NCBI GenBank assembly: GCA_964619725.1
Contig: CAZUFC010000092.1
Location: forward strand, 1 to 35,287
Direction of reading: 5' to 3'
DNA from: an uncultured bacterium
GTDB lineage: Bacteria; CSSED10-310; CAZUFC01
DNA length: 35,287 nt
Part shown: one piece after another, positions 7,249 to 32,627 of the stretch
Position numbering within the stretch: position 1 is the first letter of the stretch
Layout: each line of letters starts with the position of its first letter
Translations under genes and position numbers: made by a program
The notes under the pieces: generated by a model
The model's input: the letters and a program-made list of their open reading frames with translations, nothing else
Told to the model about the DNA's origin: nothing
The model's database searches: none

Positions 7249-8026
7249 GGTTGATGTTTAAAGTACAACATACAGGGGATGCGCCATGACCATAAGCCTT
7301 GCCTCGTCAGCATATGGAGCGGCATAAAGTTGTACGGAACGCGGCAGGATGCCGCGTCTACTTTCGAAAAAAATCTAAAGATTCACGCCGAAAAACGGCA
7401 TCAAAGAACGAAGGAAAGCAGAATCGGCATCCTGCCGCTTTCAAGCCAGGTTTCTGACCACCCTGAACGGCAAAAGGCGAAATAAAACTCAACGAAATGC
7501 CGAAGTTATCCCCCGCAAACATACGGCATTCAGAAACCAGGCTTTCAGGATCAAGGTTGATGTTAAAAGGAAGGCATACTGGGCTTGCATTATGACCATA
7601 AGCCTTGCCTTTTCAGCATATGCAGCGGCATAAAGTTGTACGGAACGCGGCAGGATGCCGCGTCTACGTTCGAAAAAAATCTACAGATCCACGCCGAAAA
7701 ACGAAATCAAAAAACAAAGGAAAGCAGAAGCGGCATCCTGCCGCTTTCAAGCCAGGTTTCTGACCACCCTGAACGGCAAAAGGCGAAATAAAACTCAACG
7801 AAATGCCGAAGTTATCCCCCGCAAACATACGGCATTCAGAAACCAGGCTTTCAGGATCAAGGTTGATGTTAAAAGGAAGGCATACTGGGCTTGCATTATG
7901 ACCATAAGCCTTGCCTTTTCAGCATATGCAGCGGCATAAAGTTGTACGGAACGCGGCAGGATGCCGCGTCTACTTTTCGAAAAAAAATCTATACGGTCAT
8001 GCCGAAAAACGTCATCAAAGAACGAA
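7249..8026. repeat. Tandem repeat of about 2.5 x 306 bp with five alternately oriented GTAG-type REP hairpins (BIME/REPIN-like)
   Basis: Units start (ggttgatgtt) at 7249, 7555 and 7861. REP acgcggcaggatgccgcgtctac (reverse complement GTAG-acgcggcatcctgccgcgt) at 7339, 7645 and 7951. Opposite-orientation gcagaa(t/g)cggcatcctgccgctt at 7418 and 7724. Confidence 0.88.
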
Positions 8027-8153: not shown

Positions 8154-9746
8154 TCATAGCCCGGCGGATTTCAGATTCTCCAGGTCATATATTTTTATCA
8201 GGTTGAGATAGGGGTCTCGTTTTTTGAGATACTCAACGTCATCCGGGAGGTGATTCTCGTAGAGAATGGAGAAAAAATCCACGTATGGATTCTGAATGAC
8301 TTTAACCGGCAGGGCATTGGCGTCGATCAGTCTTGTTGATTTGTGGTCCCAGACGTATTTTTGCCAGTCCATCATGAGGTACCTGATATTTTCGGCGTCA
8401 GCCAGCTTTAAAACCTGTTTTAATTCGGGCGGCGGATAAATAGCGTTTCCGCTTCCCATGTATAGGGCCATAATCGGTTTCATTGTGGTCATTACCCTGG
8501 TCTGGTTTTCTTTTTTCAGAAATTCTGCGCATTGGCGGTAACCTGATTCCAGGTTCAATATTTGAATCATCCTTCCTGCTGAAGCTAATGGAATCGAAAT
8601 CAGAATCGCCAGGGATAGAATAACGGGCCAGGGCTTTTTTATTTTCATCTTTAACAACGAAGAGGCAAAAACAGCGCAAGCCAAAGCTGCGAAAGGGGAT
8701 ATGATCGTTATTGTCCTGGCGAGCCGGGTGCTTAGTATCGAAAAAAATGCCAGAGGGGCCAGGATTGACGTCAGAATGATCAGCGAACTTGTATTTTTTA
8801 TTTTTTTGATCAGTATGAGCATCCCCCCGGCCAAAGCCGTCATAAATACCGGACCGTTAAATCGATACAAAATGTTCAGATAGAAGAAGGGATGCTGAAA
8901 GTTAAAACCGGCCTCCCGGTCCATTTTCTGAAAAAACAGCGGCAGATAATGAGGAGAAGCGAATTTGACGTAATGGGGAGAAAAAAGGATGTAGTAAAAA
9001 GCATCCAGAATAAGCAGCGATAAAATAAAACCCACTCCGAAACAAATGATAACGGCGGCATTTTTTTTCAGACCTCCCCAACTGCGATCACTCATGACCT
9101 CCTTGAAGATGACGACGGCAACCAGGGCCAGGGGAAAAGGCAAAACGCGATAGGAGCAGCCTATAGTCCATCCGAAAAAGAGGCCGGCGACTATTACTCT
9201 TGAAGGCTTCAGTCCGCCTGTTGCTGCATGAGCCAGCAGAAAGGCTGAGAGAATAAAGAAAAATTCTGCGGCGATTTCGTGCAGCCCGGTCCTGGCGTAA
9301 AACAGGTGATAATTGGAAAACCATAGAATAAAAGCGGCGGCAGCTCCTGTAAACCGGTCGTAAAAGCGTTTTCCCCAGAAATAGAGCATGAATCCTGCGG
9401 CCAGCGAAAAGAGCAATGAAGCGATATGCCCGGAATTTTCCATCTTACCCGTCAGTTTTTGAACGACAGACAGGGCCAAGACGAATCCGGGCTTCCCCAG
9501 CATGACGGGTAAACCTTCAAATTGCGCGGGATCGGCGCATGGAGTCTGCCCGATAGTTTCACAGAACCATTGAGGCAACCGCCACGAAACGAATCGAGCG
9601 CCCATGATGAATAATCCCTCATCCCAGAAAAACAGCCCTTTACCGGTGATGTTGTAAGACCAGAGAAAGATGTGAGCGACACAGGCGATGATCAGTATGA
9701 ACCGCGCTATTGCATCGTTTTTATTCTGAAAAAAGGATTTTTCCAT
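8154..9746 (-). CDS. GT-C membrane glycosyltransferase (ArnT/PMT_2, GT39/GT83-like)
   Basis: First TM helix followed by FWDE (acidic motif), then KPG, many TM helices and YARTGLHE. The probable start MEKSFF at 9746 overlaps the 3' end of the dnaE-like gene by 26 nt. Confidence 0.87.
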   Translation of the reverse strand: MEKSFFQNKNDAIARFILIIACVAHIFLWSYNITGKGLFFWDEGLFIMGARFVSWRLPQWFCETIGQTPCADPAQFEGLPVMLGKPGFVLALSVVQKLTGKMENSGHIASLLFSLAAGFMLYFWGKRFYDRFTGAAAAFILWFSNYHLFYARTGLHEIAAEFFFILSAFLLAHAATGGLKPSRVIVAGLFFGWTIGCSYRVLPFPLALVAVVIFKEVMSDRSWGGLKKNAAVIICFGVGFILSLLILDAFYYILFSPHYVKFASPHYLPLFFQKMDREAGFNFQHPFFYLNILYRFNGPVFMTALAGGMLILIKKIKNTSSLIILTSILAPLAFFSILSTRLARTITIISPFAALACAVFASSLLKMKIKKPWPVILSLAILISIPLASAGRMIQILNLESGYRQCAEFLKKENQTRVMTTMKPIMALYMGSGNAIYPPPELKQVLKLADAENIRYLMMDWQKYVWDHKSTRLIDANALPVKVIQNPYVDFFSILYENHLPDDVEYLKKRDPYLNLIKIYDLENLKSAGL

Positions 9747-12171
9747 CGTTGATATGGGTCGCGCCTTCGGCTTCCGGATTACCCTCAAACTTTATCCGGT
9801 TAATTTCCAGATACTGCCTCAGGTAATTCTTCAAAACCTTTTTGCGATTTTCAGGGGTAATTTTAGTGATTTCCTGTTTGAGCGCCGCGCAGGTTTCGAG
9901 GGGATGCCTGACAGAGAGAGAGGCCAGCCGGCAAGTAAGTTTCGCTTTTGCCAGATAATGAGCTTCTGAGAGTAAAAACGGAATCATAACGATCAACATC
10001 GAGAGCAATTTTGCGGCAGTATCGTTTTGAATATTTTTCGTTGCGCATCTTTTCAGGAAAATCGTCCGCAGACGGTTACGCAAGTCCGCATCTTTAGCAG
10101 TCTCTTTCATGTATAAAGCGGCATGAGCGGCGTCCCAATTCATTATTTTCATTAATATTCGTTGCACCTGTTCCCGAAAGATAAAAACGTCGTCAGTATA
10201 TTGAATGATGTTTTTGAACCAGGCGGGCATTTCATTGGTTAATTCCGAGAAACGCTTTGGAGCGAGAGGCAATTTGGAGACCGGATCAATATCGTTTAAG
10301 GCCTCGGCATAAGCCACTCTTTTTAAATCCAGGGTTTCGGACTTGTGCAGGGGCATAGTTTGTGACTCATCCAGGTGTAAAAGTTCCCAGGCGTATTTTC
10401 GAGTCAAGGCTTCCAGGTTCTGTGAATCATTTTCCGGTGTCCGTTTAAAGGAGAATCCCGGTTGTTTGTTTCTTATTTTAGTTACGATATTTTCCAGAAG
10501 GTCCATCTGCGCAGGCGTATATATGTTGAAACCCAGGAAGCCGATGGATTTCAGGTCCTTAAAAGTCCAACCGGCAGCAGTGCGTCCATCATGTGCAGAA
10601 GAGAGCGGCAATGTTTTCTCCATGTATCGAGGCAGCACGATAAGCCCCGTTTCATCATGAATTATTTTCGTCGGAAGGTTCTCGAGTTTTCGAGCATTCC
10701 TCAGGGCCCGCCGGCTTTCTTCAGAGCTGTCGCTGATTTCCTTCAGAACATCGTTTTCTTCAAGCGCGGTTTCCAGAAAAGTGACGTCGGTATCCGGAAC
10801 AGCATCAAGCATTCTGGATTTCAATTCTTCACCGAACTCAGAATTTTGAAATGACAAGAGCAGGCATTCTCTTGTTTTTAATCTTTGAAAAGATGCAGAT
10901 TTGATCAATTTCTCCGTGGAATACAATAGCTTCAGCAACTCATGAAATTCTTTTCTTCCTTTGCGGCTCAGGACGAGAGGGATATCCGGCGAGGTCAGGT
11001 AGGGGACGTCGAGCTTGTTGATGAAATTCTCAAAGAAGAGGTCATTTTCAATCGGATTCACACCCGTCAAACCCAGGATATAAGCCATAAGACTTGAAGG
11101 ACAATCGCTGAATGAGGGACCTGCAACGACGCCTCGTTCTTCCAGGGCATCCATAATTTCTGAAACGATCAGGAAATATTCCGTACCGCCGGATTCTTCT
11201 ATCTGTTTCAACTCGTGCCGGCGTCTTGCGACGAATGCCGGGTCTTGTCCCATTTCATATTTTGAGGCTAACTCTTCAATTTTATTTTGAAGCATGCGGT
11301 AAGGTTTCGGCAGGCGCATAGCTTCTGTTCCCGGCCAGCATTTTTTATCGAATTCAAAAAAGTTGAGACATTTATCCGCTATTGTCTTCGAATATTTAAG
11401 GGCATCCTTAATATCGTTGAACGTTTCCTGCATTTCGCGGGAGCTTTTAAACCAGGCGTTTTTCCATGGGACAGGAGCGTTATCCGGATGCGATTCATGA
11501 GTTGAGTTTTCTGAAAGTATTTTAAAGGCTTCGCAGTCTTCCTGCATAAGGAAGCGGCAATTATTGGCGGCGACCAGGGGTATGCCGAGCTGCCGGGCGA
11601 AATCAGAAAGCACCGAGTTGATCCAGGATTCGGCGGGATGTCCTATGCGCTGCAGCTCAAAAAAGAAGAAATCTTCACCCATGATGTCCCGCATTTCCGA
11701 CACGACGCCGAATAATTCTTCGACTCTTTGCGAAATAATCATTCTGGAAACGACGCTGTTATGGCATCCTGACAGAGCGATCAAACCGTCGTGATTTTCC
11801 TGGAGCTGATTCACGCTGATGATGGGCAAATTCATTGAATTGGAGCAGTCGCCTTTTCCGAGGAGTGCGATGAGATTTCTGTATCCTGTGGGGTCAGCGG
11901 CCAGCACGGTCAAATGGAAAGGATTGTCGGCGACTTCCTTAAGATGGGGATAGCAGGAAACGTTAATGAGCAATTCGCAGCCCGGAATAGGCTTAATGGA
12001 ATGGTTGCGGGCTTCCCGTGCGAATTTGACCAGGCCGTTGACATTCGCCAGGTCCGTTACGGCGATGGCTTCCATGCCGAATTCATAAGCTCGGCGAATC
12101 AAATCGGGTATTCTGATGGTGGAATAACTGAAGCTGTATTCGGTATGAACATGCAAATGAACGAAATTCAA
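9721..12171 (-). CDS. dnaE: DNA polymerase III alpha (DnaE) homolog, truncated and predicted catalytically inactive
   Basis: N-terminal PHP domain (HLHVHTEYS, AVTD, KPIPGCE, HLTVLA) followed by palm/thumb/fingers-like regions (EYFLIV, SLMAYILGLT, FREQV). PDIDxDF reads PDIPLVL and KxDFLGL reads GFNIY. It ends at 816 aa with no HhH/OB/C-terminal domains. TTG start with GGAGG RBS. Confidence 0.88.
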   Translation of the reverse strand: MNFVHLHVHTEYSFSYSTIRIPDLIRRAYEFGMEAIAVTDLANVNGLVKFAREARNHSIKPIPGCELLINVSCYPHLKEVADNPFHLTVLAADPTGYRNLIALLGKGDCSNSMNLPIISVNQLQENHDGLIALSGCHNSVVSRMIISQRVEELFGVVSEMRDIMGEDFFFFELQRIGHPAESWINSVLSDFARQLGIPLVAANNCRFLMQEDCEAFKILSENSTHESHPDNAPVPWKNAWFKSSREMQETFNDIKDALKYSKTIADKCLNFFEFDKKCWPGTEAMRLPKPYRMLQNKIEELASKYEMGQDPAFVARRRHELKQIEESGGTEYFLIVSEIMDALEERGVVAGPSFSDCPSSLMAYILGLTGVNPIENDLFFENFINKLDVPYLTSPDIPLVLSRKGRKEFHELLKLLYSTEKLIKSASFQRLKTRECLLLSFQNSEFGEELKSRMLDAVPDTDVTFLETALEENDVLKEISDSSEESRRALRNARKLENLPTKIIHDETGLIVLPRYMEKTLPLSSAHDGRTAAGWTFKDLKSIGFLGFNIYTPAQMDLLENIVTKIRNKQPGFSFKRTPENDSQNLEALTRKYAWELLHLDESQTMPLHKSETLDLKRVAYAEALNDIDPVSKLPLAPKRFSELTNEMPAWFKNIIQYTDDVFIFREQVQRILMKIMNWDAAHAALYMKETAKDADLRNRLRTIFLKRCATKNIQNDTAAKLLSMLIVMIPFLLSEAHYLAKAKLTCRLASLSVRHPLETCAALKQEITKITPENRKKVLKNYLRQYLEINRIKFEGNPEAEGATHINDGKILFSE

Positions 12172-12211
12172 TAGAATCGCCTCCCATCAGCAAAGCCGTT
12201 ACGGCGGGGGT

Positions 12212-12240
12212 ATAGTACATAATTCAATCATTCTTGTCCA
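12212..12240 (-). promoter_or_regulatory. Putative sigma70 promoter of the dnaE-like/GT-C unit
   Basis: Minus strand TGGACA-17 nt-TACTAT, about 40 nt upstream of the start codon. Confidence 0.5.
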
Positions 12241-12491
12241 TAAACGGCACATTCTAATATTGTTCTGCGTCGAATAAATCGTTGTCGTCGTCATTCCCGC
12301 GGCGCAGAAGGGTCGGCGTGATCATTCTCCTTGTTGATATCCGGTTGCGATACCGTTACCGACCACGGTTGCCGAAAATGGCTTATCAAGCTGCGGAATT
12401 ACCCGGTCAACGAATAAGCCTCATGTCTTCTTCACAAATCATTATTCTATTTGTCTTTACAAAAAAAAACCATTTATGGAACAGAAATTCG

Positions 12492-12531
12492 AAAAAAAAA
12501 ACGGAGCCGACAGCGATCAGCTCCGTTTTTT
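12492..12531 (-). terminator. Rho-independent terminator after the C25 peptidase gene
   Basis: Stem acggagc/gctccgt flanked by A10 and T6 tracts, about 40 nt downstream of the stop at 12569. Confidence 0.8.
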
Positions 12532-12568
12532 ATTTTTCAGGACTGTCTTCAGACAGGGCGCTGAATGA

Positions 12569-15500
12569 TTAACGCCTGTAACGTCTCATAACGGGTATCC
12601 CCATCAGCAACGACAGGCATGCGACGAGCAGACCGGCGCCGAAACTTCCGACTGCAGGTACGGGCGGCAGCGGAGGAGTTGTGGTGGCGGTCGGCGTTCT
12701 CGAAGGTCTTATAGTAGCGGTTCTGGTCGCAGTGGGCGAATATGTCGCAGGAACATCCGTGGGCGTAGAAGTAAGCGTAAACGTCGGAGGGACTCCTGTG
12801 GGCGTTCGAGTGGGCGTATGCGTCGGCGGAACATCAGTAGCGGTTCGAGTGGGCGTATGCGTCGGCGGAACATTTGTGGCGGTTCGGGTGGGAGAATACG
12901 TAGGCGGGACGTCTGTCGGCGACATCGTGGGACTTCTTGTGGGCGTTCTGCTGGGCGGAACATCGGTAGGAGTATTCGTAGGAATATTCGTGGGCGAAAA
13001 TGTCGGTATTTGCGTCGGCGTGGAAGTGGGAGGAACAGGAGAGGGAGTATCAGTCGGTAAGGGGGTGAAGGTGGAAGTAGCTGTCGGCGTAGGTTCCTGC
13101 GAGGGGCAGAGGAAATCGAGCACGGCCTGCAATACAGCGTTTCCATTGGCTGCATCAGCGTTATAAATAGGAACCCAGTCGGTGGCGAAGAAGACGGTTC
13201 GCCAGGTTCCTCCGTCGGTGTCGATGTTTGTAGGCTGGTTATTGCCGTCGACAAAGGCCGCTGACACGGAATTTTCGACACTCGGCGACACCAGATCAGG
13301 ATACTCCGAAAAATCCGAAGGATATTGCAGTTCCAGTTGTCCGAAGCCGTCCCCAACAGGATCGCCCGCCTGTCCTTCCAGGGGAGATACGGCTTCATCG
13401 CCGCCGTACCCGCTCAATCCCAGGTAATTTTCTCCGAAATTCGTTATTCCCATATCGTAAAGATAATCCTGGCTGCTCAGGAAAAGCCGTCCGCCATTGT
13501 TCAGATACGTAGTCAAAGCGGCTTCGTCAGTCGAATTGGGTCCGGCCATGGGATCGTTCCATCCGAAGGCGTATTTATCACCGGAGAACCAGATAACCAC
13601 ATCATAGGGGGCCATTTGAGCCGCCGTAGGTCCGTCCTGCGAACCTGTTCCGACGTTAAAGATGTCGTAACCGTAGCCCAGGTCGTCCAAGGCTGCGGTG
13701 AAGTAGCCGCGCACTCCGGGATTATTGTTATCGTCGTCGACCAGGAGAATGGAGCAGTCATTCGGCAGGGGCGTAGGCGTCGGTGAAGGTGTGCCGGTGC
13801 TTGTCGGCGAGGTAGAAGTAGGCGAAGGCGTCGGCGGGGAAGTTCCGGTAGGCGATGTGCCCGTGGGAGTTGACGTCGGCGTAGTCGTTTCCGTAGGAGC
13901 CGTGCCCGTGGGAGTTGACGTCGGCGTAGTCGTCGGAACGTCAGTCGGCGTATTGGTCGGCAGTGAGGTATTGGTCGGCGTATTGGTCGGCAGGGGCGTG
14001 AAGGTCCTGGTAGGCGTATGGGTCGGAGTTAGCGTGGGACCTAAAGTCGGCGTACGGGTCGGAGTATACGTTAAAAGAGCAGTCGGAGTCCCGGTCGGCG
14101 TAGAGGTTAAAATGGCGGTAGGGGTTCGAGTCGGGGATTGAGTCGGAGTGCGCGTGGGCGTCCTGGTCCTGGTGAAAGTGGGCGGTACAGTGGGGGTTTT
14201 CGTAGGCGTGCGCGTCGGCGTTCTTGTAGCTGTCGGAGGCGGCGTATAATTGCAGTCGCCGTAAATTCTTACCAACTGATATCCGTTACGGGCTGAATTG
14301 CCGCTGGTTGTGAAGGTTCCCGCCCCTGCGACGTCGCCTTCATAATACAAGAGGTAATCGCCGCTTCCGTTCAGACCGACCGAAGCGCTGCCGGTCGGAA
14401 AATAAATGGCGGCCAGATCGCCGGGGTGCACCTGGATATTCAAAGTGTCCGGAAAATCATTCACGCCCGAACTCACATATACCTGTGAAGAGCCGCCCAC
14501 GTAGCTGTACTGATTGTTGCCCAGCGGACGGATGATCCTCAAGGCTATATAACCCGCATCGACTGCGCGGACCGTCCATCCCGTCAATGTTCCGTATTCG
14601 TTGACCGACCCGGTTCCGGAACCGTCGTCGTAATAGTAGGTGGTGTCGTCGTAACTATTGGTATCGTTATATGATTCGTAAGGGTTGAACCCGGCCCAGA
14701 TGCAGGGCGTGGGAGTGTAAGTCGGCGTAACTGTAGGCGTACTTGTAACGGTCGGCGTTCCCGTTCGGGTGGGCGTATAAGTGGGCGGTCCCTGCGTGGG
14801 AGTCGGCGTGGCGGTTCCCTGGATGCATTGCAGCCATAAGTCGGGGTTACCCCATAGGTTCCATTCGCACATTTCATACGTCACGTCGTCCCAGCCGTTG
14901 TTCTGGTATACGGTTTTCATGGCCAGTTGATGCGCCGCTCCCTGACTGTAATTTCCCGACGTCACGTTCGTCGTGAAATAATAATCCAGGGATTGACTGG
15001 AACCGTCTCCGGGATCGGACCATGCATGAGTCCCAAGCGCTACCTTAGTGGCGCCTACGAACCCTACGGCTCCCTGTTGCAGCATCCTCATACCGATATT
15101 CGTATAATCCGTATCCGAATTGCTGCAGGCATCAGCGAAAACAATGGCCGGATAATTGTCGTTCAAACTGCTGCAATCGGCCGAATCGATAAAACTGGGC
15201 GAACCGTTACCCAGGATGTGGCTGGCATGGTAAGACCCATGCCCCGCCCAGTTCACGAAAGCGAATGTCCCGTTCGACCACTGATTGACCACGTTGCTCC
15301 GCGTCAAGTTATAATCGCAATCATAAGAGGACCAGTAATCTGAATTTTTCTCGTACATCCTGGTCTTCGACCATTCGAACATATACCAGGGACTTACTTT
15401 CTCCTCCATTAAAACAGCATTATCCGTATCGGCCCAGAAATATGAACCCAGCAAAAGAATGTTCTTCTTGAATGAAGGATCATTGTTCATCTCATAAGCC

Positions 15501-16657
15501 TGGGACTTGGAGCAGATACTTTGCACTGTAGAAGAAGTACTCCAGGGAATGCGCCCCACATTAACCTCATAATAATAAGTCACGTTGTCGGAATCCTGCC
15601 CGAAATATCCGTTATTGTTGCTGTCCCACGACTGATTGTCAGGCTGGGATAATTCAGCGAAATAAAAATCCGTCCTGGGATTTCCGTAACCTAAATCCTG
15701 GTAAACTTCCCGCATAGGCACATCGCTGTGATGCCCCACGAAAAGCACATCCTCTATCCCCCATTCCGCAGAAGGATATTTATCCCTTAAAAAATTGCGC
15801 ATCTTCTGCGCCAGGTCCACGCCCGAATAATTCGAATTGATCCAGCTCGTCGTCACAACCTGTACGGTGTGTCCCTTGCTTGTCTCCCAGTTTACCAGCG
15901 TATCTACCGAAGAGGAGAGCGAACTCGTGGTTATAATCACGAAATCGTACAGTCCCTTGCGAGCCGGCGCTTCCGGATACATCTCTTTTGCCTGGTCGTA
16001 ATTCAGTATCAGTTCCGCAGCAATCTTCTCCATGCGGGGCGAATGATCGGAAAGAACAGCCGAATCGATTTTCTGCTCATTAATCGTATACTCGATTTTT
16101 ATAGTTATGTCCGTATGATGGATGAGTTTCCCGGATTGAGGCCTGTATTGAAAAGGAGTGATTCGCACGTCCGCCAGGTTGTAACGTCTGAATCCCGTCT
16201 GTATTAAGTATTCGCCGATCTCGGCCGGATACGCCTTATCCGTCCCGTAAACCTCCTTATAGTTCTCCTGGTACCTCCTGGTCTGCTTCGCTTCCTCCTC
16301 TTGATTGCGCACAGAAATAATCCCCACCTTCGGACAGGGCTTGATCTTAAACCGGCCTTCCAAAACTTCCGTTTTTCCCGATTCCGCCTTCACCGATTCG
16401 ATTGCAGCCCCCGGAGGTATCGCAACCGCAAATATCCTGGACGGCAACTTCGGTTCTCCCGGCTGATTGGTGAACCCGAAATCGTCTATCCTGACATTAT
16501 GAAATTCCGCTTTTTCCGTGATCGAATATTCAAAATCAGGCAAAGAAACCTCCATTACCTCGGCGCCGGCCTGAGACGCAAAAAAGAAAAAAGCTGCCGC
16601 AGTGATCGTAAACAATGTGCTGAAAAGTCTGTATCCTCTATTGTTATCGCATTTCAT
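12569..16657 (-). CDS. Secreted C25 (gingipain-like) cysteine peptidase with propeptide, Pro/Thr linkers, two accessory modules and C-terminal membrane sorting tail
   Basis: Signal peptide (..AGA/E), propeptide GEPKLP and ITPFQY, C25 core VLFVG, TDFYF, VGRIP, His in WAGHGS and Cys in ADACSN, WNLWGNP. Tail [16 protein letters not shown]. Start MKC at 16657 is supported by GGAGG; the ORF track starts at 16684. Confidence 0.9.
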
Positions 16658-16800
16658 CCCATAAAACCTCCCCGCTTGAGACAAGCGACATAAGAAACTA
16701 AAAAAAACAGGAATGATTAAACACTTAATTCATCATTCTCGCCATTACCGTTTTAATCCTATTTCAAAAAAAAATCAAAATCGCAGTTCAATTTATAAGC

Positions 16801-16847: not shown

Positions 16848-19800
16848 TTATTGAGTTTTTTTACGCCGGATAAGCGGCGCGCCCAGCAGTAAGGAGAGGC
16901 CCAGGATGAGAACACCGAGCCCGAAAGTACCTGCTGCAGGAACCGGGGGAAGCGCATAGGTGGGTGAAGCAGTGGGAGTTCTTGACGGTCTTCTGGTTTC
17001 AGTAGGAGTAAGAGTTTCTGTTGGCGGAACGTTTGTAGGTGTTCTGGTGGGGGTATAGGAAGACGGTATGCCGGTCGGGGTCCTCGTGGGAGTTAATGAC
17101 GGCGGTACGGCGGTCGGGGTTCTCGTGGGAGTCAATGACGGCGGTATGCCGGTCGGGGTTCTCGTGGGAGTTAAAGTAGCGGTGTTTGTGGGAGACTCGG
17201 TGGGTATTTGCGTGGGAGTTCGTGTGGGTGAAGAAGTCGGAGGAACCGGTGAGGGCGTATTCGAGGGCGCCGTGGTAGGAGTGAAAGTAGGAGCGGGGGT
17301 CGGTTCCTGAGAAGGACAGAGGAAATCGAGTACAGATTGCAGCAAGGCTTCTCCATTAGCTGCATTAGCGTTGTAGATCGGAACCCAGTCAGTACCGAAG
17401 AATACTGTGCGCCAGTCGCCGCCGTCGGTATCGATGTTTGTCGACAGACCATTGCCGTCGACAAATGCGGACGACACGGTTTCATTTGAGCTGGGCGACA
17501 ATACATCCGGATATTCTGAAAAATCGGCCGGATAGCTGAGGGCCAATTCTCCGAATCCGTCTCCAACGGGATCGCCGGCCTGACCGTAAATCGGGGATAC
17601 TGCAGCATCGTTATCGAAACCGGTAAGACCGAGGTAATTTTCTCCGAAGCTTGTAATCCCCATATCGTAAAGGTAATCCTGGCTTGACAGGAAGAGCCTT
17701 CCGCCGTTGTTCAGGTATGTAGTGAGCGCTGCTTCATCAGTCGAATTCGGTCCTGCCCTGGGATCGCTCCATTGCGGGGCATATTTATCGCCTGAGAACC
17801 AGATGACCACGCTGTAAGGAGCCATCTGGGCCGCTGACGGACCGTCCTGGGAACCCAGTCCCACGGTGAAAACGTCATAAGAATATCCCAGGACGTCGAG
17901 AGCGTTGCTGAAGTATGTGCGTACGCCGGGATCATCATTGTCGTCGTCGACCAGCAGTATGGTGCATTCTCCCGGTAAAGGCGTCGGCGTGGGAGTGCCG
18001 GTATTGGTAGGTGAGGTGGAAGTGGGCGTGGGCGAGGGTGATTGAGTGCCTGTAGGTGATGTTCCCGTTGGGGTTGACGTTGGTGTCGTCGTTTCGGTAG
18101 GCGCTGTTCCTGTCGGACTTGCCGTGGGCGTATCCGTGGGAAGCCCGGTCGGCGTATCTGTCGGTATGGAGGTGTTTGTCGGCGTGTTTGTAGGTAAGGA
18201 AGTAAAAGTCCTGGTCGGCGTTCTCGTCGGCACTGACGTGGGCGTTCTTGTGGGACTCAGAGTCGGCGTTAGTGTCGGTCCTAGCGTAGGCGTTCGGGTG
18301 GGAGCGTTCGTCGGCGTTCGGGTCGGCGACAGAGTGAATGTAGCCGTTGGAACCAGGGTGGGAGTTCGGGTCGGCGTGTATGTTAAAAACAGGGTCGGCG
18401 TTCGGGTGGGAGTGCGCGTCGGAGTTCGAGTGGGCGTGAGAGTTCTCGTAGGCGTCAGTGTCGGCGTTCGGGTGGGAGTACGAGTCGGAATCAATGTCGG
18501 CGTGAAGGTGGGGACCAGAGTGGGAGTTTTTGTGGGCGTCCTCGTGGGGGTACGCGTCGCCGTGGGAGCAGGCGTATAGTTGCAATCGCCGTAAATTCTT
18601 ACCAGTTGATAGCCGTTACGGGACGAATTGCCGTCGGACGTGAAAGTCCCGACTTCCGCTACGTCGTTCTGATAATACATCAGATAATCGCCGCTGCCGT
18701 TTAAAGCGACCGAGGCGGTTCCTGTCGGGAAATAAATGGCCGCCAGATCGCCCGGATGTACCTGAATATTCAATGAATCAGGAAAATCGTTGATTCCTGA
18801 AGAGACATAAACCTGCGATGAACCGCCCACATAACTGTATTGGCCGCCGCCCATAGGACGGATTATTCTTAACGCGATATATCCTGCGTCAATCGCACGG
18901 ACCGTCCAGCCGGTCAATGTTCCATATTCGTTGACCGAACCCGTTCCCGAACCGTCGTCATAATAATATGTCGTGTCGTCGTATCGGTTTGAGTCGTTAT
19001 AAGACTGATAGGGGTCAAAACCGGCCCATATGCAGGGTGAAGGCGTGGGAGTCGGCGTTCTGGTGGGCGTTCCTGTTCTGGTGGGAGTATAAGTGGGCGG
19101 GCCCTGCGTGGGAGTGCGCGTAGGCGTGGACGTAGGACCTTCCGAAATGGTTATGGAAAGGCAATTGGATGCAGCGCTTCGACAATCCGAATCAGAACCG
19201 ACAGCCTGAACTATATAATAATACGTCGTTCCTATGGCGACTTCCGAGTCGGTCCAGTTTGTAGAAGAAGTTGTATCCATGGGTATCCAACCGAAACCGC
19301 ATCCGATGTCGTTCCGGAAAATTGCATAGTAAGAGGCATTGCTGGTCGGAGACCAGCTCAGGTATGCCGAACCTCCCGGGGATGAACCGCTGATTGACGG
19401 TGTGCCTATCGTCGGACATTGAGAATAACAACTCGGCGACAAGCCGCAGGCAATCCCGTGATTATTGAAATGCTGCCATAACCGGCAACCGTGAGGCGTA
19501 CCGTTGGAAAGATTGCCGTCATCGTCGTCGATTCCAAGTATTACATTGTAATAACTGTCGCTGTTGCATCCGTTGACGTTGGCCGACGGATTGCACTGAC
19601 CGCCTGAAACCACCTGGTATGCCGCATCCAGAGAATTTATTCCTGAATACCACATAAGATCGGCCCACAACCAGCCGCCGTTGTCGCCGATAACCCCTCG
19701 AACCGCCGCAATGGCATCCCACCACGCCTGGCTCGCTATCAGACTCTCGCAGTGTCCTTCATATCCCATAGGACCCATGTAACCGTAATAGGGACAACTC

Positions 19801-21464
19801 CAACGGTCGCAATCGGCCGGATAGGATGCGATATTGGACACCGTTACATTCGATGCCGTGTTGACGTCTCTGACGCCGCTGCAACTGGAATCGCAACCGA
19901 AATCGCAGGGCGTTCCGGGTCGAAAATTATGCCCGATGCATGATTCGTGATTGAACAGAAATGCGCCCGTATCCGCATAAGCCTCTCCTGATCCCATGTC
20001 CGCAGAAAAACCGTTGCCGTCGTAGGTGTCCAGCCCATGCGCCGCTTCATGTAAAATTACCGAAGCAACTTCACCGGTGTTTGAACAACCGCCTCCCGAT
20101 TTGAAAAAATTAATCGTTCCCGAACTCCAGTAAGCATTGCATGTATCATTGATATTAACGTTCGAAGTCAAATTACCGTTGATCCATGATATCCCCGTGT
20201 TGTATCCCCTTATCTTCTCCTTCAGCCAGTTAACCTGGTAAAACACTGTCCGGGTCGCATGCGTATTTCCGGAACCTCCATATCCGGGCGTCGTGCAGTC
20301 GGTTCCGCCGCTGGAACCGAAAGACAAATCGCCGGGAGACGAAGACGTGCTGCGATAAATAGAACCGCAATTGTCGTCCAGATTTACGTATGCTCCGCTC
20401 AAAGAACAGGACGCCGTGCCTCCGGAATAATTGTAATTGCCGCCCTTATCAGTCTGCTTCGTTCCGCCGTTGCTGACGTTCGCAAATGGGAACGGCCTTA
20501 CAACCTCAGTTCCCGACAGATTCGTCACAGGATAAATCCCGCCGTCTACCGTAGCGAATTTACGACTGTCCTGCAAAACCAGAATCTCTCCAGTGTTCGC
20601 ATCAACCAAAGCCTGCCAAACAACTGCGCTGTTCGGACTCCTTACGTATAACTCATAAACCAGCCTGTGATCGTATCCCGTTCCGTCCTCTCCTTTGTAA
20701 GGCTCGCCTAACTCACATTTTTCGCCTTCAGCCGCCGTCGGTATGATTAACAATTCTATCCCCTGCGTGATCTCGAACTCCCCGGGAAATTTCTTGCTCA
20801 AATATGACGAAACTTCATTGAATGCCTCTTCAGGGCCCTTCTGAGGCTTCGTCGATATACTCACGTTTTCATAAAAATGCGTCCCGAACTGAATTAAATT
20901 GCCGTTGTTGATCCTGAAAAAAACGTGACTTTTCCTTACTCTTACTCCATCAACTTCCTGTATGAATCTTATCGAACTGTATCGATCGCTTACATACGAT
21001 CCTTCCCTGTCCAACGTCAACTGATTCTGGTCCACATTGAATAATTCTTCATGCTCCGCCATAAATTTGCGCCCCAGGAATCCATAAAAATCAACGTCGA
21101 TCGGATCGCCCAACGTCAATCCATACTCCCTGAGGTATTCAGAGCCTAACGAATTTCCGTCGCCCGGAACCCAGGGTATGCCTGAACCCTGTATAATATC
21201 GGGACGCCCGCTGCGGTGATCTATCGCTATGTCCCATTTCATGCCGTGCTGAGCCTGAAATTCCGCCCACGACGGATCGTTCCAGCTCGCGCCTTCCTTA
21301 TAAGAATGATAATCCGCAATCGGTCTTACCAGAACCGACGGATTGTGAATCTGGGCCGCACGTATCTGTTCATACTCCGATCCCTCTGGAACCGTCACGG
21401 CCTGAACGCCTGAAATTAAAATCAGCAACGCCCCCAGAAGAACTCCGCCTTTCCATATTCTCAT
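16848..21464 (-). CDS. Secreted zinc metallopeptidase (M4/M36-like gluzincin) with FTP/PepSY-like propeptide, FN3-like domain, Pro/Thr linkers, two accessory modules and C-terminal sorting tail
   Basis: Signal peptide (VQA/V), propeptide QEVDGVRV and [18 protein letters not shown], third ligand in GEAYAD, FN3-like [18 protein letters not shown]. Tail [23 protein letters not shown]. Confidence 0.9.
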
Positions 21465-22178: not shown

Positions 22179-23639
22179 TCAACAGGCTGCGGCTATTCTT
22201 ACCTTCTGTTCGTCTCTTCCGAATATCACGTGAACGGGTTTGGCTTCCAGATGTGTTTTCAATATGACGGGTCGTCGCCATAGCGTGTGTATGTTCTTCA
22301 GGGTATTTTCTGCATATTGCATATGAAGTTCTCTGCCGTCGTATTCATGCTGCAGAAGCAGCGAACCTTCATTATTGTAGTTGGCGTCCAGGATTTTAAT
22401 GACCGGGAAAGTATTCAATCCTACGTTCATCAGCAGTGTTTCCTTGATTTTTTTCCATCCTCTTTTGTCTGCCGTTTCGCTGATGACGTAGGTTTTCTGT
22501 TGTGCATTTTTATTCTGTTGAGCATCCCGGACATATTCGAAAAGGTTGAATTCCCTGATGAGCTCTTCAGTAAGGTATTGTCTGATGAACGAAACATCCC
22601 TGTCGACTTCCCTGACGTGGAAAATCCTCTCCAAGCCCTGGCCGCCGGTTCTTCCGAAAGTATTTTTTTCTTCTGATGAGGGATCGTTCCATCTTTTTTC
22701 GATGTCTTCGAATATTTTGAAACCCATGTGATAGGGGTTTAATCCTCCGACATGAGGCCTGATGACCTGATTGTGCCTTTTCAGGAATTCGACGTGGAGT
22801 CCCTGAGTCAGATCAAGTTCATTAAGGATTCTATAGTGCATGTAGCTGGCCCAACCTTCATTCATTATTTTAGTTTCGATTTGAGGGATGAAGTATCGTG
22901 AAGTTTCATGCACTATCGTCAGCAATTCTTTTTCCCATTCTTCCATGTAGGGGCAATAGTCCCGGATAAACAGCAGGAGGTTTTCTTCGGGTTCAAGCGG
23001 TATTCGGTTCAGGTCCAGGACCTGGCTTTCCGGTTTTTCATGAAGTTCGGCGAATTCATCTTTTCCGGTTTGCATTTGTTCCATTATTTTATTTTTAGTT
23101 TCTTCCGTGGTGAGTTTTTTAATGTGCGGATATCTTTCGCAATTGAACATAATGGAATGAGCGGCATCCAGGTTTTTTTCCACGGATTCGAGTCCTATGC
23201 TGGGGTCTTCGCTGAATTCTCTTATTCTGTCGGCATGATTTTTAAAACGACTGACTACGTTTTGAGCTTGCGTGAAGGCGAAATTACAGTTGTTTTTAAA
23301 GAAATCGTTATGTCCGTAGACGTGCGCCATGGTCAGAATCTGCAGCAGCAGCGAATTGTCCTTCATGAGGTAAGCGATGGAGGGATTGGAATTGATGACC
23401 ATTTCGTATGGCAACCCCGTCAATCCGTGATCGTACAGGCTCCTGGTACGTTCATAGGCTTTTCCGAAGGACCAGTGAGGGTAATGACTGGGCATGCCTG
23501 AATAAGACTGGTAGCTGATCATTTCATCGTAATCGATCAATTCGAATTCCTGTTCATAGAAATCAAGTCCTATTTCCAGAGCTTTTTCCCTTATCTTTTC
23601 TTCCCATTGTTTCAGCGTTTCTACATCATAATCGTTCAC
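22179..23639 (-). CDS. spoVR: SpoVR/YcgB family protein
   Basis: YPHWSFGK, YEMVINSNP, MAHVYGHNDFFKNN, PQIETKIMNEGWASY and NPY..GF..F.DI motifs. Third gene of the prkA operon, with a 4-nt overlap. Confidence 0.95.
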   Translation of the reverse strand: MNDYDVETLKQWEEKIREKALEIGLDFYEQEFELIDYDEMISYQSYSGMPSHYPHWSFGKAYERTRSLYDHGLTGLPYEMVINSNPSIAYLMKDNSLLLQILTMAHVYGHNDFFKNNCNFAFTQAQNVVSRFKNHADRIREFSEDPSIGLESVEKNLDAAHSIMFNCERYPHIKKLTTEETKNKIMEQMQTGKDEFAELHEKPESQVLDLNRIPLEPEENLLLFIRDYCPYMEEWEKELLTIVHETSRYFIPQIETKIMNEGWASYMHYRILNELDLTQGLHVEFLKRHNQVIRPHVGGLNPYHMGFKIFEDIEKRWNDPSSEEKNTFGRTGGQGLERIFHVREVDRDVSFIRQYLTEELIREFNLFEYVRDAQQNKNAQQKTYVISETADKRGWKKIKETLLMNVGLNTFPVIKILDANYNNEGSLLLQHEYDGRELHMQYAENTLKNIHTLWRRPVILKTHLEAKPVHVIFGRDEQKVRIAAAC

Positions 23640-24883
23640 GCGACTTCCTCCGCTTTTTCTTTGCTGAGAAATTTTTTAAAAACAGGCCAGATATCCGATT
23701 TATCCCGTATGGTCAGCGTATGAAAATTTTCAGCTTTGATTTGCTTGAAAACCTGTATCATTGACGATTCCCAGGACCTGTAAGGGCTGTCCGGCTTAAT
23801 TTCTCCGTAACCGAAAAGATTGGATATCCCGGCCATTTTCTCTGCAGCCCTAACGGCCTTTTCGTTATCGGAATCCCAGTTGTCTCCGTCCGAGCAATGG
23901 AAAATATAAACGTTCCACATACTGGGATCGAACCGCTCTTCGATCACTTCCAACGCTTTCAGATAACCGCTGGATATAAACGTCCCGCCGCTTTCTCCTT
24001 TATGAAAAAAGGTATTCTCGTCGACTTCCTTCGCTTCGGTGTGATGAGCGATGAACACTATTTCCACATGCCTGTATTTAGTCTGAAGAAACCGATAAAG
24101 CAGGAAGTAAAAAGTGCGCGCCAGGTATTTTTTCGTTTTATCCATACTGCCGGAAGTGTCCATAATGCAGAAGCAGACCGCATTCGAATGCTTTTTGATC
24201 GTTTCAACGACCCGCTTGTACCTCAAATCCTGTTCATGGAAAGGAAATCTTTCTTCCTCTTCTTGGTCGTCCCGGGGCTTCGCAGCCGCTTCGTCATTTC
24301 CCGTCGAACAAACCTTTTGCGGCGTATTGGGATTTCCGTTGAAATCCTGTGCAGCCCTTAGCGTACCCTGCTTTCTTTTGATTTTCTGTATCAGCGACTT
24401 TTTCTTATCGAGCCGGTGCCTTAAACCGTGCTGCGAATAACCTTTCCTCTTCGCCATCCTTTCCGACAAAACTTCACGGAACTTCTTGCGTTCGTTGAAA
24501 GGAAGCTCCAGGTCTTCGAAGAGGTAATCGATCAGCTCATCAATGGTTACTTCAGTTTCGTATATCTCCTCCCCCGGACTATCGCCGGCGCCCTGTTTTC
24601 CTTTTTTGCCGGTGTTCTGCGCAAACTTGTCGCCTCTTTTTTCCTTGCCTGTTCCCGTAGCGGTTCCTCGAGCATTCGATCCGTAGACGAACCGGTATTC
24701 TTTTATGCCCTTGATGGGAATTTTGACTTTCTTTTTTCCATCGCTGCTTATGATGGCTTCTTCGGCCACAATGTCGCCCAGGTTTTCCTTGATGGCCTTC
24801 TCCACTTTTTCACGGTGGCGGCGACGGTCCTGGGCGCTCCTGTCGCTTCGATGGTATGGATCGTATTGTCGAAATACCGCCAT
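23636..24883 (-). CDS. yeaH: YeaH/YhbH family (DUF444) vWA-like protein
   Basis: DRRRHREKV, IPIKGIKEYRF, IMDTSGSM (MIDAS-like), HKGESGGT, HCSDGDNW and FGYGEI motifs. Probable start MAVFRQ at 24883, just after the prkA stop. Confidence 0.93.
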   Translation of the reverse strand: MAVFRQYDPYHRSDRSAQDRRRHREKVEKAIKENLGDIVAEEAIISSDGKKKVKIPIKGIKEYRFVYGSNARGTATGTGKEKRGDKFAQNTGKKGKQGAGDSPGEEIYETEVTIDELIDYLFEDLELPFNERKKFREVLSERMAKRKGYSQHGLRHRLDKKKSLIQKIKRKQGTLRAAQDFNGNPNTPQKVCSTGNDEAAAKPRDDQEEEERFPFHEQDLRYKRVVETIKKHSNAVCFCIMDTSGSMDKTKKYLARTFYFLLYRFLQTKYRHVEIVFIAHHTEAKEVDENTFFHKGESGGTFISSGYLKALEVIEERFDPSMWNVYIFHCSDGDNWDSDNEKAVRAAEKMAGISNLFGYGEIKPDSPYRSWESSMIQVFKQIKAENFHTLTIRDKSDIWPVFKKFLSKEKAEEVA

Positions 24884-24887
24884 CGTC

Positions 24888-27559: not shown

Positions 27560-27656
27560 TTATTTTTTTGCGATCCCGATCCCGACCCCGACCCCGTTTG
27601 CTGAAACAAACCGCCGAAAATTTTGAAAGAAGTGTAACCCCGATTTGATCAGTCTC
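27560..27656 (-). mobile_element. Partial MITE-like element, interior type 2
   Basis: cgatcccgatcccgaccccgacccc...gtaaccccgatttgatcagtctc is the reverse complement of the left half of 28366-28544. It abuts the dciA stop codon. Confidence 0.6.
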
Positions 27657-28185
27657 AAGAAAGTCTGCCACTCTTCTTCATTATATAGTCACGCCGTATC
27701 ACTTCACTTACCAAATGCCGGAGTCTCCTGTCCTCGATGCAACTCACCATGCCGGCCACTTCGGCTTCTTCATTCCCGCTCAGTTCAAACTGTTTCTCCG
27801 CCGCTCCATCGTGCCCCCTGTCTCTGTCCTTCACAACTCCAAACCGCGCATTGAAATTTTTCACTTTCTTGAATTCAATATCCTCGATTTCCAGTTCGTA
27901 ATCATTCAATTTTTTTATTATGTGCGCCTTGACGTCATTCAAAACCCGAAACCATTCCGGAGACGCGCAAACGGTCAGGATGGAGTTCTTAAGAGCCGAA
28001 GGAAAACATTTGCGACAAAGGAGAGGACCCACAATATCTTCCCAGTCAAGGAAAATTTCGACCGGCATCGATCTACTATACTCCGGCAAACCGGACAGCA
28101 TCCCCTTCAAGACCTGTTTGGTCGATTGAAAGCGATTTGAACCCCTTCTTTTTGATTTTCCGTTTCTGTTGACGAATCCATCCAT
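27655..28185 (-). CDS. dciA: DciA / DUF721 family protein (replicative helicase operator)
   Basis: W.DIVG....KCFP..L....LTV..SPEW...L......IIKKLN pattern typical of DUF721, with a charged C-terminal tail. Confidence 0.72.
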   Translation of the reverse strand: MDGFVNRNGKSKRRGSNRFQSTKQVLKGMLSGLPEYSRSMPVEIFLDWEDIVGPLLCRKCFPSALKNSILTVCASPEWFRVLNDVKAHIIKKLNDYELEIEDIEFKKVKNFNARFGVVKDRDRGHDGAAEKQFELSGNEEAEVAGMVSCIEDRRLRHLVSEVIRRDYIMKKSGRLS

Positions 28186-32530: not shown

Positions 32531-32627
32531 GGAATTCTGCATATTGTGAAAGTCCCACGGTAAACGTTTCCTTTGCCAATTGCCGGATGTTGTGTTAAAT
32601 ACGCAACGAGAAACGAGGAATTCAGGA

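Follow-up and report, generated by a model that had tools for sequence, protein, structure and literature searches.

Can a bacterium keep a gene for a replicative DNA polymerase after the polymerase activity has been lost? The question is raised by a 35,287-nucleotide stretch of DNA from an uncultured bacterium (GTDB lineage Bacteria; CSSED10-310; CAZUFC01; GenBank assembly GCA_964619725.1, contig CAZUFC010000092.1, positions 1 to 35,287), referred to below as the window, in which a gene at 9721..12171 on the (-) strand encodes an 816-residue relative of DnaE, the alpha subunit of DNA polymerase III (Pol III alpha). An original prediction, made from the letters of the sequence, had described the product as an intact but catalytically dead and truncated DnaE, retained as a pseudo-polymerase. 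We find that the window protein is very probably a retained, catalytically dead paralog derived from DnaE1. The palm does not carry three carboxylates, and two relatives with intact frames, P0122 (806 aa, 30% identity, 2e-82) and P0123 (820 aa, 31% identity, 1.9e-80), stand directly below the self match in an exhaustive HMMER search, which agrees with the prediction that the gene is not a pseudogene. To the best explanation overall, a non-catalytic DnaE1-derived paralog kept by selection and possibly serving as a PHP-centred adaptor or scaffold, we assign a probability of about 0.6; the adaptor role by itself is held more tentatively.

A DnaE1-type protein that ends before the first HhH motif

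The window protein is homologous to DnaE1-type Pol III alpha, and the fold is kept. Pfam recognises three domains, all above their gathering scores: PHP (PF02811, 3e-35, residues 5-175), DNA_pol3_alpha (PF07733, 3.5e-32, residues 299-548) and, weakly, DNA_pol3_finger (PF17657, 1.5e-05, 24.8 bits against a cut-off of 22). Comparison by phmmer with the Thermus aquaticus (Taq) and E. coli alpha subunits gives E values of 1e-53 to 1e-57 (Taq, 7.7e-57). The top NCBIfam match is the DnaE1-type equivalog PRK06826 (341.9 bits against a cut-off of 1260), and the DnaE1-type equivalogs are covered from model position 3 to 783 of 1151. The superfamily model TIGR00594 reaches 326.4 against a cut-off of 434.35 and the DnaE2 model NF004225 reaches 174.8 against 939; the protein stays under every NCBIfam cut-off. 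The higher scores of the DnaE1-type models, together with the loss of the catalytic triad described below, bear out the prediction that this is not a normal DnaE2.

An AlphaFold2 model of the window protein, run with a 100-row alignment, is confident (mean predicted local distance difference test score, pLDDT, 85.6; predicted template modelling score, pTM, 0.87), the low-confidence segments being the tail at 798-816 and residues 601-637, a stretch in which the RPGP motif of canonical fingers has disappeared. In a Foldseek search of the PDB the model matches E. coli alpha (2hnh) and the Taq and Mycobacterium tuberculosis alpha subunits at E about 1e-41, with TMq values of 0.65-0.76 (best for 2hnh, 0.76), and it superposes on 2hnh, 2hpi and 7pu7. 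The next matches are PolC (~1e-24) and then free-standing PHP enzymes. Phage DnaE structures in BFVD are no nearer to the model (15-21% identity).

The PHP domain (residues ~1-270; 11362..12171, (-)) is followed by a degenerate polymerase core of palm, thumb and fingers (residues ~271-797; 9781..11361, (-)), delimited by Pfam and modelled with pLDDT mostly >85 except at 601-637, and by a C-terminal tail (residues ~799-816, ...INDGKILFSE; 9724..9777, (-)). MAFFT placed DGKILFSE at the extreme C-terminus of full-length DnaE, and the tail was considered as a clamp or tau motif; this was rejected on local alignments, in which it is homologous to the hairpin that precedes the helix-hairpin-helix (HhH) region, at E. 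coli residues ~826-834. The hairpin comes after a G[IL]K[IV]LPPD segment, and its E. coli counterpart, NDDGEIVYG, starts at residue 826; the tail of P0123 likewise aligns locally with residues 761-822 of P0059. The tails of P0122 and P0123 (DGRLLLES and GDTIVFS) stop within 1-2 residues of the window-protein end, which corresponds to about E. coli residue 835, where the first HhH of the beta-binding domain begins.

The PHP domain and polymerase core are therefore complete in a protein that has no clamp-, tau- or single-stranded-DNA-binding domain. The predicted loss of the HhH, oligonucleotide-binding (OB) and C-terminal domains is confirmed: Pfam detects no PF14579 (HhH), PF01336 (OB) or PF20914 in the window protein, and PF14579 and PF01336 are present in the full-length matches. 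The C-family order of PHP followed by palm, thumb and fingers is kept; the (HhH)2/beta-binding domain, OB fold and tau-binding C-terminal domain that characterise DnaE1 are missing. Timinskas et al. (PMC3919608) describe PHP, Pol3 and (HhH)2 as "nearly universally present" in DnaE1.

Replacement of the catalytic and nucleotide-contacting residues

Active-site residues were numbered by MAFFT alignment to E. coli DnaE (MPDFDVD = residues 399-405). At D401, D403, D405 and D555 the window protein reads D, P, V and N, so that the original claim of two missing catalytic aspartates out of three holds (D403 to P, D555 to N) and the palm shows D/P/N in place of three carboxylates. PDxDxDF is replaced by PDIPLVL (residues 395-401; 10969..10989, (-)), which keeps D401 and changes D403 to P and D405 to V. 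The position of D555 falls in a remodelled palm-2 hairpin, WTFKDLKSIGFLGFNIY (10519..10569, (-)), where K553 becomes G and D555 becomes N; it contains the family signature WT[FL][KN]D[LI]K..G[FHY]LGF[NE], and GFNIY occupies residues 547-551 (10519-10533). The GRGSxAGS nucleotide-binding loop reads PSFSDCPS (residues 352-359; 11095..11118, (-)), with R362/G363/S364 changed to F/S/D, and FENFINKLD (residues 380-388) stands in place of FERFLNPER. Further replacements are R390 to N, R709 to M and Y764 to K; R396, H511, L557, F609/Q610, F751 and Y754 are also replaced, and R639/P640/G641 lie in an alignment gap. The GRGS, FERFLNPER, RPGP and NKSH motifs are all degraded. The motif readings and coordinates of the original prediction were correct throughout, including those in the PHP domain (TDL at 39-41 and NNCR at 203-206).

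The two relatives have lost the same sites. At D401/D403/D555, P0122 reads S/Q/E and P0123 D/Q/E, and D405, conserved in all DnaE groups, is V, G and I in the three family members, none of which has the C-family catalytic triad. Nucleotide binding was judged by R362/G363/S364, R390, R709/R710, K758 and Y764; of these, R362/G363/S364, R390, R709 and Y764 are replaced in the window protein, and the losses in P0122 and P0123 are comparable.

The erosion is uneven along the protein. We defined conserved columns as those with at least 90% conservation in the 301 full-length, triad-bearing DnaE sequences fetched, and took 10 random canonical sequences as controls. The window protein keeps 36 of 51 conserved columns in the PHP domain (controls 44-51), 22 of 45 in palm-1 (35-45), 4 of 7 in the thumb (5-7), 4 of 17 in palm-2 (15-17) and 12 of 51 in the fingers (45-51). 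Judged from these alignments, the replacements leave none of the three members able to form a two-metal polymerase site, and the motifs that contact the triphosphate and the template have been dismantled (R362, S364, R390, H511, K553, R639, R709 and Y764).

An active polymerase with non-canonical metal ligands would have to build on D401, kept in two of the three members, and on the glutamate found at D555 in two of three. No triad position is a carboxylate in all three, however (D403 is P, Q and Q), and R362, S364, R390, K553, R709 and Y764 are lost as well. Timinskas et al. (PMC3919608) report the triad as present without exception in the sequences that they accepted as C-family polymerases, and we give this alternative next to no credence.

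The same losses bear on the idea that the gene encodes the N-terminal half of a split DnaE, with the HhH, OB and C-terminal domains encoded elsewhere and the pieces assembling into a working enzyme. The protein is about as long as the N-terminal piece of cyanobacterial split DnaE, whose NCBIfam model (PRK09532, 876 aa) matches it at 8.4e-51, and other short DnaE-like proteins with an intact triad exist. Yet the catalytic and dNTP-binding residues belong to the part that has been retained and are nevertheless lost, Pfam finds no intein or Hint domain, and the downstream gene is membrane glycosyltransferase-like. A split enzyme is thus highly improbable.

A small family with intact reading frames

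A word-indexed search with the window protein gave 2409 matches at E<=0.001 among 8000 scored candidates; the 120 matches listed contain its own protein and then only canonical DnaE at 25-29% identity. The exhaustive HMMER search covered 1.84 billion cluster representatives and gave 18,113 matches at E<=0.001, of which the best 150 were listed; P0122 and P0123 come from this list. Between themselves they share 41% identity across 796 columns, and with the window protein they have in common the length class, the end point and the loss of D403, D405 and D555. A retained pseudoenzyme is expected to have orthologs elsewhere that have lost the same residues and whose frames are nevertheless intact; P0122 and P0123, from other lineages, are of this kind and answer the original proposal that such orthologs be looked for.

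A FastTree phylogeny of 79 rows (all proteins without the DDD triad, all proteins <900 aa, 45 random full-length sequences and E. coli; columns up to E. coli 790) places the window protein, P0122 and P0123 together at the end of a long branch, as a clade whose local support is 100%. Three signature motifs, GVV[ST]EMR.I[LM]G, W[IV]NSVL[SF]D[FL] and the palm-2 signature given above, occur only in this clade among 455 fetched proteins. A search with P0123 returned only P0123 and P0122 and then canonical DnaE at <=29% identity. Each of the two relatives is represented by one sequence, P0122 on a contig of 38,956 bp and P0123 on one of 4,128 bp; NCBI names P0123 "PHP domain-containing protein [bacterium]", and nr files it under a candidate division. 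Among GTDB species representatives, a protein scan gave 46 pattern matches with 0 relatives, and a degenerate DNA pattern for WT.xD.KxxGxLGF[NED] gave 0 matches, so that the family was not found there at the sensitivity of these scans; a word-indexed profile search with the three-member alignment returned canonical DnaE only and recovered not even P0122 and P0123. Look-alike clusters in the ESM Atlas (631-856 aa; Uroviricota, Verrucomicrobiota, Bacillota and Pseudomonadota) are leads only.

We saw no sign that the gene came from a mobile element or a defence system. No phage or plasmid record exceeds 26% identity to the window protein, PHROGs returns generic phage DnaE families only, PADLOC anti-phage models identify 0 families among the window protein and 5 neighbours, and the BFVD structures are the distant ones described above. 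The family is genuine yet very rare, and so far restricted to uncultivated bacteria.

The gene starts with TTG at 12171 and ends with TAA at 9723-9721. In 1000 shuffles the longest open run was 233 codons, against 816 in the gene, whose two other forward frames contain 43 and 49 stops. The correlation of its codon usage with that of 14 neighbouring genes is r=0.68 when the gene is read in frame, compared with 0.18 and 0.11 when it is read out of frame. A Shine-Dalgarno sequence read from the DNA, GGGAGG (12180..12185, (-)), lies 8 nt 5' of the TTG, so that both the intact frame and the ribosome-binding site (RBS) proposed for the gene are substantiated.

The protein-database copy, P0002 (784 aa), begins instead at the ATG of residue 33 and omits residues 1-32 (window 12075-12171). 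TTG is the better call, because the ATG start removes FVHLHVH, the conserved strand that carries the PHP HxH motif and is also present in P0123. P0122 likewise begins ~25 residues late, and non-ATG starts in this family seem to be overlooked by gene callers.

Probable selection on the PHP domain and the palm-2 hairpin

The three members share 28-41% pairwise identity, so that 59-72% of residues differ, and each remains open over ~810 codons with the same start and end of frame. Unconstrained sequence at 59-72% divergence is expected to be full of stops and frameshifts. Because three frames are intact at 28-41% identity, neutral decay is effectively excluded, and we infer that the gene is under purifying selection in a small, deeply diverged family.

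This leaves little room for a decaying pseudogene or relic of a duplicated dnaE that is still open by chance. Such a relic would account for a branch of 1.26 changes per column, for the degradation of every functional motif and for the extreme rarity of the family. It is contradicted by the 816 open codons, more than three times the longest run among the shuffles, by the stops in the other frames, by relatives at 30-31% identity that are intact and end at the same point, by the conservation of structural Gly, Pro and aromatic positions and of the set of family motifs, and by the RBS and native codon usage. We regard it as scarcely credible.

Identity between family members is distributed differently from that between canonical proteins. 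The three family pairs are 43, 42 and 56% identical in the PHP domain, against 49% for random canonical pairs; the corresponding values are 26, 28 and 35% against 54% in palm-1, 29, 23 and 34% against 44% in the thumb, 35, 29 and 49% against 57% in palm-2, and 16, 20 and 39% against 49% in the fingers. Invariant residues occupy 117 of the 665 columns filled in all three members. In 84 of these the residue is the canonical majority residue; 11 are switched against a canonical residue that is at least 80% conserved (for example K553 to G, N757 to S and R443 to Q), and 22 are family-specific, 15 of them within PHP residues 49-194. This pattern suggests that selection preserves the PHP domain together with a palm-2 hairpin rebuilt in a family-specific way.

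A PHP domain of the variant type

The PHP domain is the best-conserved part of the family and is classed here as variant by its ligands. Canonical proteins have the nine-ligand string HHDHEHCDH. The window protein reads HHYLEHCNR and P0123 HHRYEHCDR, while P0122, which lacks its N-terminus, reads ---MEHCDH; the partial loss of metal ligands predicted from TDL and NNCR is thereby verified. Wherever positions 3 and 4 can be read they have been lost, and two of the three members have also lost position 9. Positions 1, 2, 5, 6 and 7 are kept in all members that include this part of the sequence, and the residues at position 8 are D, D and N. Positions 3, 4 and 9 together form what we take to be one of the three metal sites.

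According to Barros et al. (2013; PMC3666897), the PHP consensus is H H D/H H E H C/H D/N H; losses are most frequent at positions 4, 6 and 9, with Arg as the commonest replacement. The E. coli alpha subunit binds no metal, R203 and R10 filling metal sites, and the variant PHP is assigned a structural role linked to a separate epsilon exonuclease (PMC3666897). None of the family members retains the intact nine-ligand set that marks an active PHP exonuclease (PMC12926913 and PMC3666897).

The main rival to an adaptor is, by analogy, a residual two-metal PHP hydrolase, in which the polymerase would be dead, the PHP domain would bind two metals as a nuclease or phosphoesterase, and the dead core would hold the substrate. 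It would fit the conservation of the PHP domain above all others, the retention of positions 1, 2, 5, 6 and 7 and the N that is permitted at position 8 (PMC3666897), and it could have a precedent in PolX proteins that lost the polymerase site and kept PHP activity, as reported in PMC12926913. The ligands at positions 3, 4 and 9, however, are Y/L/R, R/Y/R and ?/M/H in the window protein, P0123 and P0122; both C-family surveys score any deviation from the nine-residue motif as inactive; and the Arg at position 9 is the residue that fills a metal site in the metal-free E. coli subunit (PMC3666897). We consider a hydrolase unlikely.

Loss of DNA- and clamp-binding features

We next turned to the basic residues of the core, taking the 24 columns in which at least 80% of canonical sequences have K or R. 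The three family members keep 6, 7 and 8 of the 24, compared with 22-24 in controls and 13-23 in other short homologs, and the net charge of their thumbs is -4, -3 and -3, at the 1st-7th percentile of canonical proteins. Because 16-18 of the 24 conserved basic residues are lost, canonical DNA binding by the window protein is unlikely. The region of the internal clamp motif is absent, and the tail, as the homolog of the pre-HhH hairpin, is not a QLxLF motif.

These observations disfavour the DNA-binding or decoy role offered in the original prediction, in which an ImuB-like protein would sit on primer-template DNA or on the clamp and recruit or block other polymerases. The architecture of the cleft is retained in the model, and inactive Y-family paralogs with scaffold roles are known (ImuB; PMC12926913). 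Against this, the beta-binding/HhH domain with its internal clamp motif is missing and the tail is a hairpin, the basic residues are lost and the thumb is acidic, no imuA, imuB, lexA-type or repair gene is found among the neighbours, and no operator-like inverted repeat lies upstream. The analogy to ImuB survives as a concept only, the clamp motif and mutasome context being absent, and a decoy of this kind seems quite improbable.

Proposed role of the window protein

The explanation that we favour, a PHP-centred adaptor or scaffold, starts from a DnaE1-type Pol III alpha paralog that ends right before the HhH/beta-clamp-binding domain and has very probably lost catalysis. Such a protein should be incapable of polymerisation and of riding the clamp, and probably could not hold a primer-template in the canonical way. 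Its variant PHP domain shares Arg at position 9 with the E. coli alpha subunit, whose structural PHP docks the epsilon exonuclease, and may bind a partner protein or ligand together with the remodelled palm. The protein would be expressed from its own transcription unit along with an overlapping membrane glycosyltransferase-like gene. That the protein is dead and retained is much the firmer part of this proposal; that it works as a PHP-centred non-catalytic adaptor we hold tentatively, at somewhat less than even odds.

Several observations weigh against it. Only three family members are known, two of them single-sequence metagenome clusters. Six of the nine PHP ligands survive (1, 2, 5, 6, 7 and 8, accepting N at 8), and the strong conservation of the PHP domain could reflect only a role in the folding core, such as the one described by Barros et al. 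(PMC3666897). The gene neighbourhood is of the surface and envelope kind and gives a replisome role no support, the nearest replication gene, dciA, being ~15.5 kb away.

A broader possibility is that the window protein founds an undescribed C-family class of pseudo-polymerases, in which a stand-alone PHP domain and a dead core have been exapted as a non-catalytic partner. We rate this as doubtful, less probable than the adaptor role itself. If it is true, C-family pseudo-polymerases may, for example, dock a trans-acting exonuclease or another genome-maintenance or envelope-linked factor.

Locus and neighbouring genes

The upstream gene (12569-16684) encodes a C25 (gingipain-like) peptidase of 1371 aa. 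Its linkers are long and rich in Pro and Thr, and a hydrophobic helix at the C-terminus precedes RRYRR, an arrangement that we take to resemble a PEP-CTERM-type sorting signal. The gene is followed by a strong intrinsic terminator (12490..12539, (-); -25.2 kcal/mol, z -5.88, 0 of 200 shuffles as stable, then U10); the DnaE-like gene therefore opens a new transcription unit. A sigma-70-like promoter candidate in the 330-bp spacer, TGGACA-17-TACTAT (12212..12240, (-)), is a consensus match only (9/12), and the 2 sigma-70-like sites found upstream compare with 4.6 +/- 2.4 in shuffles, which is no enrichment. Of the predicted own promoter, the separate unit thus stands and the promoter itself stays a candidate. 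No inverted repeat or operator-like element was found in the 360-bp region upstream of the gene.

Downstream lies a gene for a PMT_2-family membrane glycosyltransferase-like protein (8154..9788, (-); start at ATG 9746 or TTG 9788). It is probably co-transcribed with the DnaE-like gene, because its start lies inside the DnaE-like 3' end, which it overlaps by 26-68 nt. On the transcriptional side of this unit, in the ~1-kb gap between the PMT_2 gene and a BNR-repeat gene, sits a tandem repeat (window 7286-8023) with a 306-bp unit in 2.4 copies, 94% matching, which contains only short repeated open reading frames (ORFs) of 45-68 aa.

Among the 14 large neighbouring ORFs scanned, no imuA or imuB and no lexA-type, repair or polymerase gene was found, in agreement with the original prediction as regards imuA and imuB, and the locus is ordinary chromosome without a repair cassette. 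The remaining neighbours comprise serS accompanied by three tRNAs, an aminotransferase gene, genes for BNR/sortilin-repeat and PMP-repeat surface proteins, prkA-DUF444-spoVR and dciA. Two tRNA-Ser genes (GCT and TGA) and a tRNA-Arg gene (ACG) adjoin the seryl-tRNA synthetase gene (640-982 and 1191-2462). A 1538-aa protein without any Pfam domain is encoded at 16848-21464. The prkA, DUF444 and spoVR genes (22179-26840) have overlapping ends and form a conserved stress operon of the PrkA/YeaH/YcgB type. The DciA-family helicase-loader gene (27655-28185; Pfam 1.4e-07) is the sole replication-related gene in the window, and a second PMT_2/STT3-like membrane glycosyltransferase-family gene lies at 32580-35162, besides that at 8154-9788.

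Other short DnaE-like proteins and significance

Loss of the triad is concentrated in short proteins. Among fetched proteins of <900 aa, 18 of 33 lack at least one triad Asp, comprising four rows of the window clade and 14 others; among the longer ones this is true of 1 of 306 (P0141, 1113 aa). The 14 (P0125, P0129, P0138, P0145, P0149, P0153, P0161, P0162, P0170, P0193, P0233, P0253, P0255 and P0321) are 759-882 aa long, and D403 is most often the residue lost. They resemble the window protein in being short, long-branched and DnaE1-like with at least one triad Asp gone. They differ in falling outside the window clade, on separate long branches near the DnaE1 base (FastTree), in keeping most other key residues (13-23 of the 24 basic columns, against 6-8 in the window clade) and in mostly ending ~40-50 residues earlier, just after the AYLKAHYPxEF helix. 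If their genes are complete, the 14 may constitute a wider undescribed set of shortened, inactivated DnaE copies. Taken with them, and if the broader reading of a pseudo-polymerase class is true, catalysis would have been lost and the Pol III alpha scaffold kept repeatedly in uncultivated bacteria.

Polymerase paralogs that are inactive and yet have a function occur in families Y (ImuB), B (Pol epsilon and archaeal PolB relatives) and X, and we rate the present case as the first seen in family C. No inactive or truncated C-family homolog is described in our literature searches or in the part of the PMC12926913 supplement covered by a keyword search, where the sole inactive domains mentioned are those of PolA1 and PolX1. 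Sequences whose active site was not intact were removed by Timinskas et al. (2014; PMC3919608), and a 2026 NAR survey (PMC12926913) recognises only PolC and DnaE1-3 and discarded "strongly diverged or truncated sequences" before building trees. Because such sequences were excluded, the statement that the triad is absolutely conserved is partly circular; if the pseudo-polymerase class proposed above is real, the textbook universality of the C-family triad would be overturned.

By homology the window protein belongs to family C and derives from DnaE1; by its triad, nucleotide motifs, (HhH)2 and model score cut-offs it fails as a polymerase. It is also an annotation trap, since its domain content suggests "DNA polymerase III subunit alpha" and would lead to a miscount of replicases in metagenome-assembled genomes. 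A conserved dead DnaE would show that purposes other than synthesis are open to the Pol III alpha scaffold, and it offers a concrete case for testing PHP function on its own.

Comparison with known systems

The nearest described relatives are the DnaE1 alpha subunits of E. coli, T. aquaticus and M. tuberculosis, with which the window protein shares homology across PHP, palm, thumb and fingers at 25-29% identity and from which it differs in lacking D403, D405, D555, most nucleotide and DNA contacts and the C-terminal domains. DnaE2 is set apart by the intact triad, by imuA/imuB, which are absent from the 14 ORFs scanned, and by the NF004225 cut-off score, and cyanobacterial split-intein DnaE by an intein or Hint domain, which Pfam does not find here, and again by the triad.

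Outside family C the likenesses are of another kind. ImuB is also a polymerase paralog kept without catalytic residues, but the likeness is conceptual only: its fold and family differ, and it has a clamp motif and an SOS cassette with imuA and dnaE2, of which the window protein has none. PolX1 (PMC12926913) presents the same decay of the polymerase site beside a better conserved PHP module; it belongs to the X family, however, and its nine-residue PHP motif is intact, whereas the window protein has lost three ligand positions. The proteobacterial variant PHP (Barros et al., PMC3666897) resembles that of the window protein in the loss of positions 4 and 9, with Arg at 9, and in being a structural or docking element; the polymerase that it supports in E. 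coli is active, and it binds epsilon there, whereas here the attached polymerase is dead. In Pol epsilon, the inactivated polymerase-exonuclease module (Tahirov et al. 2009, PMC2669801) is likewise an inactive replicative module kept for structural reasons, but that module is of the B family and fused to an active polymerase, whereas the window protein stands alone.

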